Part shown: piece after piece, positions 12,844-37,835 of the stretch
Layout of the letters: the number at the start of each line of letters is the position of its first letter
Numbering within the stretch: position 1 is the first letter of the stretch
NCBI GenBank assembly: GCA_029259595.1
Contig: JAJDEW010000017.1
Coordinates: 1,073 to 65,072, forward strand
Length of the DNA: 64,000 bases
DNA from: Planctomycetota bacterium
Lineage (GTDB): Bacteria > Planctomycetota > UBA1135 > GCA-002686595
Direction of reading: 5' to 3'
Notes under the pieces: model-generated
Told to the model about the DNA's origin: nothing
Databases searched by the model: none
The model's input: only the letters and a program-made list of their open reading frames with translations
Position numbers and translations under genes: made by a program

Positions 12844-13010
12844 CTAGTGGGGTGACGAACGAGCGCTTCGGATGCCGGGGCGTCCGCAGCCGCTGGAGTG
12901 GAGCATCTGAAAACGCAGGCGAATCCGTGGATTCTGCGAGGCTTCCAGGTGGCGCACTCCTGCGGGGGATGTCGTCATGGCGCCCAATGACCGGGTCAAG
13001 GGGCTCCTAG
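12844..13010. repeat. Copy A (most diverged) of a novel ~165-bp CTAG-flanked repeat element with partially complementary ends.
   Basis: Shares the motifs GCTTCGGATGC, GAAAACGCAGGCGAATCC and GCGAGGCT and a GGGCTCCTAG 3' end with the copies at 17743, 24427 and 24590. Its terminal CTAG (13007-13010) contains the EF-G stop codon. Confidence 0.8.
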
Positions 13011-15106
13011 GAATCCTCGCCGAGGACCTTCTCGGCGATGTTGCGCGGGACGGCGCGGTACTCCTGGAGCTCCATGGAGTACGAGCCACGCCCTTGAGTC
13101 GCACCCCGGAGGGCCGAGGAGTACGCGAACATCTCGGCGATCGGGACGAGACCGCGAACGATGCGCTGATCGCCCAAGGCCTCGACCTCGCTGACTTCGC
13201 CGCGGCGCGAGTTGAGATCGCCGACGACGCCACCCAGGTATTCCTCGGGCACGCGCACCTCGATCTTCATGATCGGTTCGAGCAGCGTCGAGTTGCCCTG
13301 GATGACTTCGCGGAAGGCCTGGACGCCGGCTGCATGGAAGGCGTGCTCGTTCGAGTCGACGTCGTGCGCCTTGCCGTCGAACAGGCTGGCTCTGACGTTC
13401 ACGAAGGGATAGCCGAGACGGCCCCCGCCCAAGACGCCTTCCTTGATGCCCGCGGAGACCGCAGGGATGTACTCGCGCGGGACGGAACCACCCTTGATCT
13501 CGGAGACGAACTCGAACTGTTCTTCGCCCGTGTCCACGATGTCGAAACGCACGCTGATGACGGCGTACTGACCGCGACCGCCGGACTGGCGCACGTAGCG
13601 GATCTCGAGCGACTTCGAATTCGAAAGCTCCTGCTTGTAGGCGACCTTCGGCCGCCCGGTGACGACTTCGCAGCCGTACTCGTTCTTGATCCGGTTGACG
13701 ACCACCTCGAGGTGGAGCTCGCCCATGCCCGAGATCACGAGGTCGCCCGTCTCCTCGTTCGTCACGGCGCGGAAGGTCGGATCCTCGCGCATCATGCGAC
13801 CGATGACCTCGGTCAACTTGTCGCGGTCCTGGTTCTTCGCCGGCTCGATCGACATGGCGATGACGGCCTCGGGGAAGGTGATTTTCGAGAGCGCGATCGG
13901 CGCGTTCTCGTCACACAGCGTGTCACCCGTGATCGTGTTCTTGAGCCCCATGACGGCGGCGATCTCTCCGGCCCCGACGGAATCGCAGGCCTCGCGCTTG
14001 TTCGCGTGCATGCGAACAATGCGGCCGATGCGCTCGTTCTTGCCGGTCCGCGGGTTCAGGACTCGGACGCCCTTCGAAAGGACCCCGGAGTAGACCCGCA
14101 CGAAGGTGAGGTCACCGGTGGACTCCGCAACGGTCTTGAAGGCCATCAGGCACATCGGCTCGTCGTTCGACGGCTTGCGCGTCTCGACGGTGTCCTCGCG
14201 CGGACGCAGGCCCTGGACGGGCGGGATGTCGAGCGGGCTCGGCAAGTAGTCGAGCACGGCGTCGAGCAGGAAGCGCACGCCCTTGTCCTTCAGGGCCGAG
14301 CCGCAGAGGACAGGCGTGATCTCCATCGAGAGCGTTCCGAGTCGGATCGCGCGCTTGAGCAGGTCCAGCGGAATCTTCTGGTCCTCGACGAAGAGATCCA
14401 GGAGCTCCTCGTCGAACTCGGCGGCGGTTTCCACCAACTCGTGCCGACGCAACTCGACCTCTTCGAGCATGTCCGCGGGAATGTCCTTCTCGGACGCCGC
14501 CTTGCCGTCCGAAGCCTCATCGAACTCGTAGAAGCGCTGGTTCACGAGGTCGATGAAGCCGCGGAAGTCCTTCTCCTCGCCGACGGGCAGCTGCAGCGTG
14601 ATCGGACGCGCACTCAAGCGATCGACGATCGACTGGATGGCCTTGAAGTAGTCCGCGCCCGCCCGGTCCATCTTGTTGATGAAGCAGATCCGCGGAACTC
14701 CATAGCGGTTCGCCTGGCGCCAGACCGTCTCGGACTGGGCCTCGACCCCGCTGACGGCGTCGAACACGGCGACCGCGCCATCGAGCACCCGCAACGAACG
14801 CTCGACCTCGGCGGTGAAGTCCACGTGGCCGGGCGTGTCGATGATGTTGATCGTGTGATCCTTCCACTCGACCGTCGTGGCCGCCGATTGGATCGTGATG
14901 CCGCGCTCACGCTCCTCCTCGAGGAAGTCCATCGTGGCACTGCCCTCGTGCACCTCACCGGTCCGGTGGATCTTGCTCGAGAGGAACAAGATCCGCTCCG
15001 TAACGGTGGTCTTGCCGGCATCGATGTGGGCCATGATGCCGATGTTGCGGTGCTTGACGAGGTTTTGCTGGCCCATCGCTTGCTGGGATTCGACTGCCGT
15101 GGACAT
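13007..15106 (-). CDS. fusA: Elongation factor G. It stands alone, outside any rpsL-rpsG-tuf context, so it is probably an EF-G2-type paralogue.
   Basis: MSTAVESQQ...[29 protein letters not shown], and full five-domain EF-G length (699 aa). Confidence 0.92.
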
Positions 15107-15255
15107 GATTCGAGCGCGAACGACGCGCGTTGTGGACTTCCACCGTGGGGAAGCGTTGCGAACCCGTGCGGGCCGCGGGGAACCGAAAGGGAGGGCGTCG
15201 AACCCTGCTCGATCGGAATTTGAAGCGAACTAGACTAGCGCGGCTTCGTTGCCTG

Positions 15256-23553: not shown

Positions 23554-23637
23554 GGCAAGGAGTTCTACGACCTTGAGGGAAAAAGTCCTACAGGGAGCTG
23601 GGCCCGCTGACGAAGGGGCCAGCGGAGGGTCGGGAGC

Positions 23638-24417
23638 TTGCCGACCCGATCGCTAGTCCGCGAAGCCCCCTCTTCGTTGCTCGATCTCATGAACGACAGC
23701 TCGCCGCCGGCGTCCCGGCTCGTGTCGGAATCCGTTCTTGCTCCGAACGCCTTGCCCTCCCGTACCGCGCGCTCGCAGCACGCGTCGACCTTGTCCTCCC
23801 GACCCCGCCGGACCTGCCCGCTGATTCGAGTCGCAGAAGAGCACCGCCTCGGCCTGGTCATCGACAGCGTCTTGATCGTGAGCGCCGACGCCGCCTTCGC
23901 GGACCGTTTCCACGACGAGCTCTCCCCCACCTTCGCATCGACCAGGGCCGGCTCCCTGCGAGAAGCGCTCGAACGGCTGGACCTGACGCGACCGCAGGCC
24001 ATCGTGCTCGACACCCCGCTCGCCGATGCGACGGGTCTGAAGGCCTACTTCTTCATCAGCCAGCACACGCAGGAGGCATGCGTCCTGGCGCTGACACGCG
24101 AACGCGACCATCTCCAGGCGCGGTGCCTCGTCACCGCGGGAGCCGCCGCCGTCCGCTCGCGCGAGAGCGTCTTCAGCACCGACGTCCGGATCGTCGTCCG
24201 CGACGCGATCGCGACCGCTGCGCGACGCCGATCACTCGCGGGCAACGCCACGATCGCGGCCCAGGCCGAGCGAGTCTCCATGTGTGCGGTGTGCCGCAAG
24301 ACGCGCGACCACGAGACGTACTGGAACCGCCTCGAGGCGCTCGCAACGGACGACGGACGCCAGCCCGTTTCTGCCGCGATCTGTCCGGCCTGCGCGCGTC
24401 AGCTCTACGGCCACTAG
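23638..24417 (+). CDS. Hypothetical protein with a degenerate CheY-like receiver domain and a C-terminal CxxC...CxxC zinc ribbon. The start is uncertain and could be ATG ~23689.
   Basis: Receiver-like segments VLIVSAD and AIVLDTPLADATGL. C-terminal CAVCRK...CPACARQLYGH. Its TAG stop (24415-17) lies in a CTAG-rich junction immediately before repeat copy C. Confidence 0.45.
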   Translation: MPTRSLVREAPSSLLDLMNDSSPPASRLVSESVLAPNALPSRTARSQHASTLSSRPRRTCPLIRVAEEHRLGLVIDSVLIVSADAAFADRFHDELSPTFASTRAGSLREALERLDLTRPQAIVLDTPLADATGLKAYFFISQHTQEACVLALTRERDHLQARCLVTAGAAAVRSRESVFSTDVRIVVRDAIATAARRRSLAGNATIAAQAERVSMCAVCRKTRDHETYWNRLEALATDDGRQPVSAAICPACARQLYGH

Positions 24418-24426
24418 CTACTAGCT

Positions 24427-24593
24427 CTAGCAGTCCGATGGCAGAGTGCTTCGGATGCGATGTTCGTGACCGGGAGGCCCGGCGGGTGCGCGAGAACGCA
24501 GGCGAATCGGTAGATTCGGCGAGGCTCTCGTGTGCCGGCCGGACTTTCCGGACGCGTGCAGCGCGTCGGAGGACTTCTTCCAAGGGCTGCTAG
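24427..24593. repeat. Copy C of the novel ~165-bp repeat element. It is the first of a head-to-tail tandem pair.
   Basis: About 90% identical to copy D across the core. It carries GTGCTTCGGATGC, the GACCGGGAGGCCCGGC hairpin, GAACGCAGGCGAATCGGTAGATTCGGCGAGGCT, and ends GGGCTGCTAG. Confidence 0.85.
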
Positions 24594-24757
24594 CAGCCTG
24601 ATGGAAAAGTGCTTCGGATGCGATGCATGTGACCGGGAGGCCCGGCGGGTGCGCGAGAACGCAGGCGAATCGGTAGATTCGGCGAGGCTCTCGTGTGCCG
24701 GCCGGACTTTCCGGACGCGTGCAGCGCGCCGGATGACTTTTTCATCAGGCTGCTAGG
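24590..24757. repeat. Copy D of the novel repeat element. It shares the CTAG (24590-93) with the end of copy C, and its right terminal CTAG contains the stop codon of the methyltransferase gene.
   Basis: 5' end CTAGCAGCCTGATGGAAAAG is almost perfectly complementary to 3' end CTTTTTCATCAGGCTGCTAG. GCTGCTAGCAGC at the C/D junction is a perfect 12-bp palindrome. Confidence 0.85.
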
Positions 24758-25340
24758 ACTTGCGGCGGTCGAAGACCGCCCAGCGCTCTTGCCACTCGCG
24801 ATCGGTAACCGGGTAGTCGACCGGGCGATCCGCGCAGATGCGGAAGGTGTTCCCGAGCGCACGCTGCTGATCGTCGGCGGTGATGCCCCAGGGAGGTCCG
24901 CCCAGCTCGAGCGGACGGTCGACCGGGAAGACGAGGCAGAAGAGCCGCCCGTTCGAGGCCAGGTTGCGGTCGATCATCTTGCCCCAGTCGGGCCGCTGCG
25001 CGGGATCGATCGCACAGAAGAAGGTGTGATCGAAGATCGCCTGGAAGGACTCCTTGCCCTGGTGCTTCAGCGCGTCGGTCGCGAGGAATTCGCCACCCAG
25101 CTCCTTCAGCGGGGTCAGGATCTCGTCGGAGAGGTCGACCTGATCGATGGCCGTGACGCTCCAGCCGAAGCTGGCCAGGGCCAAGGCGTCGTAGCCACGT
25201 CCGCAGCCGGGGACATAGGCCCGCCCCGGACGCCCGAAATCGCCAGCACGCAAGCGTGCGACCAACTCAGGATGAGCGCGACCCAGGTCCCAGGGCGTGT
25301 CACCACTCTGGTAGCGCGATTCCCAGTCCATGGGGAGCAT
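24753..25340 (-). CDS. SAM-dependent methyltransferase, thiopurine S-methyltransferase-like.
   Basis: ORF track gives 24753..25493. The likely start is ATG 25340 (MLPMDWESRYQSGDTPWDLG). SAM-binding motif VPGCGRGYDALALASFGWSVTAIDQ. Confidence 0.65.
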   Translation of the reverse strand: MLPMDWESRYQSGDTPWDLGRAHPELVARLRAGDFGRPGRAYVPGCGRGYDALALASFGWSVTAIDQVDLSDEILTPLKELGGEFLATDALKHQGKESFQAIFDHTFFCAIDPAQRPDWGKMIDRNLASNGRLFCLVFPVDRPLELGGPPWGITADDQQRALGNTFRICADRPVDYPVTDREWQERWAVFDRRKS

Positions 25341-37101: not shown

Positions 37102-37674
37102 TCAGGAGGCGCGGCGTTTGGCGTCCGCCTGCAGGATCGGGTCGAAGTCCGGCCGTGTGAGCCAGCGGCGCCCCGACAGGTCCACCGCGCAGCCCACCGT
37201 CTCGAGGCGGCTCGCCAGCGCACGCCGATCCTCGGGCGTCCCGGCAAAGCGGATCACGTGACGACCGGCGATGTCGGAGAACGGCCGAATCCGACCGAGC
37301 TGCACGAGGATCGTGCGGTCCGGGTGGGTCGCAAAGGCCATCCCTGCTTCGAACAGCACGTTGGCTCGGGCCTGCGGTCGGAGCTCGCGCTCGGCCGGGC
37401 CGTCCGCGGGCACGGCATGACACGCGCGCAAACGTGCCTCGTCGTCGCCCGTCAGGAGCACGACCACGGCCTGAACCTGAGCGAAGGCGTGCTCGAGCAC
37501 GTCGCCGATGTGCGGCGCACCGGTTCCCGCCTCGCGCACGGCCTCCTCCCATTCGAGCGGCTGGAGGCCGATCGCGCGCAGAAACTCGACCAGTGCATCG
37601 TGAGCGGCCACGTCTCGGCCGTGCACGACGAAAATCCGACGCGGATCCGCACTTTGCTTCGTCGGTTGTGTCAT
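37102..37674 (-). CDS. Stand-alone TIR-like domain protein (PF10137-type 'predicted nucleotide-binding protein containing TIR-like domain').
   Basis: Family hallmarks from memory: RIFVVHGRD near the N-terminus, VVLLTGDDEA, and RPQARANVLFEAGMAF. Likely start is the internal ATG (MTQPTKQSADPRRIFVVHGRD). Monocistronic, between rsfS and a divergent glycosyltransferase. Confidence 0.5.
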   Translation of the reverse strand: MTQPTKQSADPRRIFVVHGRDVAAHDALVEFLRAIGLQPLEWEEAVREAGTGAPHIGDVLEHAFAQVQAVVVLLTGDDEARLRACHAVPADGPAERELRPQARANVLFEAGMAFATHPDRTILVQLGRIRPFSDIAGRHVIRFAGTPEDRRALASRLETVGCAVDLSGRRWLTRPDFDPILQADAKRRAS

Positions 37675-37835
37675 CGCTGTACCTCCCGTGCAGCGGTCGA
37701 ACGAGAATCCCCGGAAAGCCTTTCCCTCCAACTCGCCGGAGACCGATCCTTGCCCTTGGTATCTCCGTGTCCGAAAGACCTTCCTCCTTTCCGCTGGAAC
37801 CGCGATCCTCCTTAGCCCATCGCACAGACGATTCC

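Follow-up and report, generated by a model that had tools for sequence, protein, structure and literature searches.

A head-to-tail pair of apparently undescribed hairpin repeats, candidate miniature transposable elements, between convergent genes of a Planctomycetota bacterium

Members of the IS630-Tc1-mariner superfamily, such as IS630 of Shigella and ISY100, insert at TA with a 2-bp duplication, use a symmetric target and carry inverted termini (PMC2170065); IS630 itself is cited in that source as preferring the TA within CTAG (Tenzen & Ohtsubo 1991). These features appear to be shared by a repeat of about 161 nt, two copies of which, here called C and D, abut head-to-tail between two convergent genes of a Planctomycetota bacterium, in a 64,000-nt stretch of DNA that is referred to below as the window (assembly GCA_029259595.1, contig JAJDEW010000017.1, positions 1,073 to 65,072 of the forward strand). 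However, the repeat has neither a transposase gene nor a known parent, it is a palindrome over its full length of ~161 nt, whereas those elements have inverted repeats of ~25 bp around a gene, and its fold is strand-specific.

Further likenesses are found among small non-autonomous repeats. RUP of Streptococcus pneumoniae, a transposable element of the miniature inverted-repeat kind (MITE) thought to be moved by IS630-Spn1, is like the element in being small and non-coding, with inverted termini, a TA target and presumed mobilization in trans by the IS630 family (PMC2229807). However, RUP is 107 bp long and AT-rich and its termini match a known insertion sequence, whereas the element belongs to a planctomycete with 67% G+C and mostly targets CTAG at stop codons. 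The Correia (NEMIS) elements of Neisseria are likewise flanked by TA and located next to genes; they are co-transcribed and form long RNA hairpins that RNase III can cleave, and some copies contain a conserved central protein-binding site (PMC2229807). Their sequence is unrelated, and the stem of the element comprises 60 pairs with covariation across the phylum. ERIC/IRU (RU-1) of enterobacteria, a MITE of over 100 nt in the form of an imperfect palindrome, is cited as acting on the neighboring mRNA in a manner that depends on orientation (De Gregorio 2005, as cited in PMC2229807); it is the nearest precedent for a strand-asymmetric hairpin. It differs in sequence, size (127 bp) and host, and has not been described as following any CTAG or stop-codon rule. 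REP sequences and REPINs, which are associated with RAYT, are palindromic and extragenic, often lie just after genes, can provide a TAG stop with their termini, and occur as dimers and clusters acting as single strands (PMC3733652). However, they are 20-40 nt long, with a GTAG or CGTC tag on one of their ends, and involve no target duplication, whereas the element is a single 161-nt hairpin with C-TA-G junctions at both ends and neither tag.

The element has the properties by which MITEs are recognized: it is small, ends in inverted repeats, conserves no reading frame and is dispersed in at least 100 copies over many metagenome-assembled genomes (MAGs) and metagenomes. No family of Rfam 15 reached its gathering threshold in the region, the only above-threshold match in the window being a tRNA elsewhere. 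Permissive E-values yielded only spurious plant and animal miRNA-precursor hairpins, far below threshold, and a known RNA family was thus rejected. Neither the apical motif of the hairpin nor the family was found described in the literature. The family is thus apparently an undescribed, abundant repeat of Planctomycetota, new but of a known kind. The features of the pair are as follows.

24414..24430: cluster of three CTAGs, CTAGCTACTAGCTCTAG; the last CTAG is the left junction of C
24430..24590, plus strand: copy C, element body of 161 nt (G...C), with TA flanks at 24428-24429 and 24591-24592; the more decayed copy
24495..24526, plus strand: apical motif of C, AACGCAGGCGAATC..T.GAT.C.GCGAGGCT, conserved
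24586..24597: junction palindrome GCTGCTAGCAGC, composed of the right terminus of C (GCTGC), the common TA and the left terminus of D (GCAGC)
24593..24753, plus strand: copy D, element body of 161 nt, with TA flanks at 24591-24592 and 24754-24755; stem essentially perfect, covariance-model score 164.6 bits
24658..24689, plus strand: apical motif of D, conserved

We propose that C and D are copies of a non-autonomous DNA transposon, a MITE, with IS630/Tc1-mariner-like integration, a reading that we consider probable, though far from certain. It is carried by the ends of the element, for which flanks and folds were counted in two independent sets, 45 copies from MAGs and 55 from metagenomes, 100 in total. 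The element body was delimited by the invariant outermost G-C pair, which gives a length of 160-163 nt and complementary termini (GCAGCCCGTTGAAG.../...CTTCAACGGGCTGC). Outside this body, TA is present on the left in 28/45 and 45/55 copies (73/100) and on the right in 36/45 and 46/55 (82/100). The next base outward on the left is C in 35 and 49 copies of the two sets (84/100) and T in 7 and 5 (12/100); on the right it is G in 37 and 49 (86/100) and A in 6 and 4 (10/100). Since the inner terminal G and C are invariant and only the outer bases vary (TTAG...CTAG, CTAG...CTAA, TTAG...CTAA), what is duplicated is the TA of a symmetric Y-TA-R, not 3 or 4 bp; the same observation rules out a 4-bp YTAR or 3-bp CTA duplication of the IS5/IS701 type. 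As far as sequence can tell, a 2-bp TA duplication in Y-TA-R is the signature of the IS630/Tc1-mariner superfamily, and the majorities at the outer bases match the CTAG preference of IS630 proper. In the MAG set, decay of TA to CA is more common on the left than on the right (9 vs 3 of 45), a difference that fits the right TA being held more often within a host TAG stop.

Under the proposed mechanism, a transposase provided in trans would place the 160-163-nt element into the TA of a palindromic Y-TA-R, mostly CTAG, with duplication of that TA. The empty site would read a single CTAG (or CTAGCTAG) and, G being the first base of the element and C the last, insertion at C-TA-G would yield C-TA-[G...C]-TA-G. 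A targeted host TAG stop would be preserved, or a TAA become TAG, so that insertion exactly at the ends of genes would be tolerated. A fresh CTAG target would arise at each end of the element, and such regenerated targets would explain abutting copies: a later insertion into a terminal TA would give a head-to-tail pair with one common TA in GCTGC-TA-GCAGC. At this locus, C would have arrived first, at the common 3' ends of the convergent genes, and D would have inserted later into the right-hand TA of C, which is also the stop of a TPMT-family gene.

The pair itself corresponds closely to what the initial annotation had read from it, namely two copies of about 90% identity joined through a common CTAG in a perfect 12-bp palindrome. 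A repeat finder delineates direct repeats at 24427-24589 and 24590-24752, with a period of 163 nt and 91% identity, and the CTAG common to C and D (24590-24593) lies at the center of the perfect 12-bp GCTGCTAGCAGC, which is palindromic because inverted termini meet on either side of one TA. CTAG occurs at 24414, 24421, 24427, 24590 and 24753 in all; the first three are the CTAGs noted earlier within 17 bp upstream of C, and the TAG stop of the receiver-like gene (24415-24417) was correctly placed within the first. The pair had also been said to fill the convergent gap exactly; it does so nearly, but 9 nt (24418-24426) lie between the left stop and the CTAG of C. The pattern is not a chance one: across the window, CTAG is depleted, with 25 occurrences observed against 72.7 expected from shuffles, and 8 of the 25 are located at or beside the four element copies that the window contains.

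Most likely, the pair arose through two insertions, one after the other. Inside the element, 14 positions distinguish C from D, mainly in the outer stem, the inner 110 nt being almost identical. At the 12 stem pairs that differ between the copies, D is paired at 12/12, one of them as G·U, whereas C is mismatched at 6 and shows G·U at 4; this unequal decay suggests that C is the older copy and D the later insertion. Tandems formed by unlike copies occur elsewhere in the family: at one locus (L033), two different subfamilies lie head-to-tail with one CTAG in common, and at another (L125), two different elements lie back to back, in opposite orientation, again with one CTAG in common. Together with the decayed C beside an intact D, these tandems favor two insertions over one duplication. 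Repeated insertion into a CTAG hotspot, one of two origins initially suggested, is thus supported by the Y-TA-R flanks, the rebuilt CTAGs, the L033 and L125 tandems and the empty loci of relatives.

The other suggested origin, a single MITE insertion followed by tandem duplication through replication slippage or unequal recombination at the hairpin, with the 9% divergence arising later, is possible but rather unlikely for this pair. A period of exactly one element plus one TA (163 nt) agrees with it, as do the common subfamily of C and D and the near identity of their inner 110 nt, and one MAG has arrays of at least three units in which the internal junctions show the same CA variant at several loci. 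However, duplicated copies would be equal in age, yet the pair-breaking changes are all in C (6 vs 0); a single copy would be bounded by a direct repeat of just 4 bp (CTAG) to drive slippage; and duplication cannot make the different-subfamily tandems of L033 and L125, whereas these show the insertion route to exist. In the arrays of the MAG in question (ERR2762127_binner23; L004, L029, L030, L042 and L045), the inner junctions are C-CA-G (or GA) and the outer junctions TA, and multimers may move as a whole, their inner junction being inactivated.

Two further observations concern the junctions of the pair. Within 24463-24721, C's right arm can base-pair with D's left arm into a third hairpin centered on the junction, which is the source of a spurious Rfam match to MIR918; a transcript spanning C and D would face competing folds. 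Additionally, the CTAG cluster left of C contains TAGCTA, which might, speculatively, be an excision footprint of a TA-flanked GC...GC element, given the footprint predicted from the biochemistry of ISY100, where the cut falls 2 nt inside the 5' ends (PMC2170065). TAGCTA is not enriched, with 5 occurrences in 358 kb, no more common than other TA-NN-TA hexamers.

The flanking genes, and the corresponding loci of relatives, bear on the mobility of the pair.

23638..24417, plus strand: orphan receiver-like open reading frame (ORF) of 259 aa, converging on the pair; its stop TAG (24415-24417) lies in a CTAG
24753..25340, minus strand: TPMT-family methyltransferase gene of 195 aa, with the CTA of D's terminal C-TA-G (24753-24756) as its TAG stop

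The receiver-like ORF has a weak Response_reg match (23.9 bits, under the cutoff) and codon-position GC values of 0.70/0.60/0.87, which are typical of coding sequence and host-like; no orthologue was found among 5.8 billion proteins, the sole match being the ORF itself. The closest homologues of the TPMT-family protein (79% and 81% identity) are encoded directly upstream of an AMP-binding gene, adjacent to it or overlapping it at GTGA, and no element is detectable at the TPMT/AMP-binding junction of these relatives, where the TPMT orthologues end in TGA overlapping the next gene. The window has ~1.2 kb more at this place (23554-24752), consisting of the receiver-like ORF, C and D, and absent from the relatives. 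Similarly, no element follows EF-G in three relatives at 76-78% EF-G identity, in which the gene ends in TGA; one of these EF-G orthologues is on the same contig as a TPMT orthologue. The comparison of orthologous regions that the initial annotation had called for thus finds the copies absent from relatives at 76-81% protein identity. Upstream of HMG-CoA reductase in one relative (L130, ~690-750), a perfect tandem of the octamer CGCCCCCT, of ~7 units, occupies the intergenic position where the window has copy B.

Two further copies, A and B, lie elsewhere in the window.

12847..13007, plus strand: copy A, degenerate; its right C-TA-G gives the TAG stop of EF-G (13007-15106, minus strand); covariance-model score 112.9 bits
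17742..17902, plus strand: copy B, in a long intergenic region, with a decayed left junction (CCAAG); covariance-model score 153.8 bits

The covariance model found no window copies beyond A-D. The 32-nt apical motif occurs four times in the window against 0 expected, on the plus strand in all four copies. Scanning one genome per species for this apex gave at least 52 loci, and among the loci listed nearly all are from MAGs of Planctomycetota, Planctomycetaceae or Phycisphaerales, the remainder being MAGs classified no further than "bacterium". A relaxed motif gave 71 more loci in metagenomes from sediment, soil and ocean, while a scan of viral contigs for the family gave 0 matches. The apex was found only inside these elements, its invariance being partly imposed by the search pattern. 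At L125 (5361-5694), a second element has a different apical sequence, and the superfamily is thus wider than the apex motif used for searching. At L097 (300-570), a copy that has no left arm is joined to what is left of the C-terminus of an IS701-like transposase (LDHFEGRS..GFHRH...FL); this ORF was considered as a parent of the family and rejected, being a remnant beside a truncated copy. The short-read Logan contigs L053 and L058, from the source sample SRR15505516, break off inside the element to either side of the pair.

The association with stop codons extends over the family. The terminal CTAG is the stop of a coding-like ORF in 46/100 copies, compared with 38/225 unoccupied CTAGs of the same loci. 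In the window, 9 of the 41 genes end in TAG, 4 of these in a CTAG context, and three of these four carry or abut a copy: EF-G (A), the receiver-like ORF (C) and TPMT (D). The stop-codon overlaps number 34 at the right end and 17 at the left end among the 100 copies; by set, they are 17 vs 5 (MAG) and 17 vs 12 (metagenome), so that the orientation bias toward the abutting gene amounts to a modest combined excess, strong in one set and weak in the other. The strand that carries the apical motif (the motif strand) is more often antisense to the abutting gene than sense, the flanking coding strand being antisense in 84 cases vs 45, and a simple 3'-untranslated-region hairpin of the upstream gene is thus insufficient as an account. 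Both EF-G (13007-13009) and TPMT (24753-24755) have TAG at the element junction and TGA in relatives (L130-L133 and L054/L055); the element either picked out CTAG stops, which are rare, or put its own in place of the original one.

The fold of the element is the one feature that could set it apart from known kinds. An alignment of 45 copies gives a single hairpin of 60 pairs, 45 of them with compensatory double changes; the stem cells are paired in 92%, compared with ~40% when the partners are slid, and 0/500 shuffles match the observed covariation. At the pair, the hairpin of C has a predicted energy of -108 kcal/mol, where shuffles average -70.6 (z = -9.0), and that of D reaches -121 kcal/mol. 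The motif strand folds better than its complement in 45/45 and 55/55 copies, with mean energies of -113 vs -84 and -108 vs -82 kcal/mol, respectively, and the consensus folds at -82.5 vs -23.7 kcal/mol on the complement. This stability is strand-specific because the non-Watson-Crick positions are G·U on the motif strand, where G·U outnumbers A·C by 341 to 38 (9:1) and by 397 to 87 (4.6:1) in the two sets. The GC skew of the element is +0.18 on the motif strand, whereas that of the flanks in element orientation is +0.007 (54/89 positive); with flanks thus unskewed, replication-linked mutation bias and lagging-strand-coupled insertion were rejected as the source of the asymmetry.

Several of these results weigh against a DDE-type cut-and-paste MITE. 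Such a mechanism accounts neither for the strand-specific fold nor for a stem that covaries over its full 60 pairs. The window contains no gene for a transposase, a reverse transcriptase or an HUH enzyme, no orphan termini occur in the fetched loci (about 0.38 to 0.7 Mb), and a metagenome scan for the left half-apex without a return arm gave 0 matches. The sites of the relatives are not clean empty alleles, as they are without the CTAG target and the receiver-like gene and have TGA stops. Finally, the CA-junction arrays of one MAG (L004, L029, L030 and L045) indicate that multimer amplification also occurs. The better fold of the motif strand in 100/100 copies, the excess of G·U over A·C and the covariation in 45/60 pairs are not required by transposition of the IS630 type. 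On these grounds, spread or retention of the element may, and we say so tentatively, depend on a single-stranded form of one strand, either an RNA hairpin or a single-stranded DNA intermediate, a proposal to which we give rather low credence. In an RNA version, a conserved purine-rich apical loop could be delivered to gene ends as a 3'-end or insulator module; in a DNA version, a single-stranded intermediate could still integrate at the symmetric CTAG.

A stronger form of the RNA proposal holds that the structured RNA is primary, i.e., that a motif-strand hairpin of ~165 nt has a function kept by selection, for example the binding of a protein, the formation of 3' ends or a shield against antisense transcription, and that transposition merely spreads it. 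The covarying stem, with its 92% paired cells, 45/60 doubly compensated pairs and 0/500 shuffles, speaks for it; moreover, a tandem U·G/G·U is among the conserved G·U pairs, the consensus fold strongly favors one strand, the GC skew is +0.18, and the apex is confined to these elements. Nevertheless, we consider this improbable, since the motif strand is more often antisense to the abutting gene (34 vs 17; 84 vs 45), the neighboring relative at L125 has another apex while the invariance of the apex is partly imposed by the search, copies A, B and C decay as expected of selfish DNA, and neither a promoter-like site nor a U-tract was found. Promoter-like features are lacking at the pair and across the family; no U-tract follows the hairpin on either strand at the pair, where no terminator-like site was found, and stretches with 5 T in 8 nt are rare in the flanks and 3' arms of the 100 copies, whichever the strand. 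The action as a bidirectional terminator that the initial annotation had considered possible is thus without canonical support, although termination of a non-canonical kind may occur.

The strand-specific fold, with G·T tolerated in 100/100 copies, could also recall a REPIN-like single-stranded DNA transposon moved by an HUH/Y1 transposase of the RAYT or TIRYT type, in which the hairpin strand is cut beside CTA and pasted 3' of CTA with no true target duplication; filled and empty sites would look alike under either mechanism. A covarying hairpin that spans the entire element is found in REP doublets too, termini that provide TAG stops have been described for GTAG REPs, and RAYT-like genes with flanking long inverted repeats exist, Planctomycetes included (PMC3733652). 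We judge this reading quite improbable. The target is symmetric, the left T (12%) and right A (10%) mirroring one another as do the C and G majorities in the two sets, which argues against an enzyme of the IS200/IS605 or RAYT type that reads the 5' flank only and would leave the 3' flank random. In addition, there is no GTAG or CGTC tag, the flanks have no strand-composition bias of the kind that lagging-strand-coupled insertion would leave, and neither the window nor the fetched loci contain a Y1 gene. The weakest alternative, that the element encodes a peptide of ~51 residues (M.KCFGC...ENAGESVDSARL...) ending at the terminal TAG, has next to no likelihood: no stop interrupts the frame in any of the four window copies or in 34/45 family members, but in-frame stops in 11/45, a terminal TAG out of frame in 10/45, lengths varying over 160-163 nt and a start codon that is not fixed lead to its rejection, residue conservation being limited to the apex, where the nucleotides themselves are invariant, and the sequence outside the apex changing wholesale with the compensatory changes of the stem.

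The surroundings of the four copies are those of a core chromosome, the genes of the window including those for DnaE, PtsI, EF-G, HMG-CoA reductase, a cytochrome bc-type complex and PFK. Amid these housekeeping genes lies one for a CAP12/Pycsar-type TIR-domain protein (37102-37731, minus strand; PF10137, E = 1.7e-25), a homologue of which is also encoded on a contig of a relative (L054). Just upstream of EF-G, the intergenic sequence CTAGACTAG (15230-15238) contains two CTAGs 1 nt apart, a possible unoccupied double target or old footprint.

Returning to the reading of C and D as MITE copies with IS630/Tc1-mariner-like integration, its appeal is that one simple insertion rule explains both the puzzling palindromic CTAG junctions and a pair wedged between two stops. 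What we infer beyond the observed junctions is the transposase type, the order of insertion and any RNA-level role of the element (a 3'-end hairpin, transcriptional insulation between the convergent genes). In practical terms, the family marks the 3' ends of genes and fragments short-read assemblies, and its open frame of 51 codons could mislead gene callers. The terminators and RNA biology of Planctomycetota are poorly known; should the strand-specific fold serve an RNA function, the family would lend itself to studying how mobile hairpins shape the 3' ends of transcripts, and if the element does depend on a single-stranded form, it would be a phylum-wide mobile structured nucleic acid of an undescribed kind.

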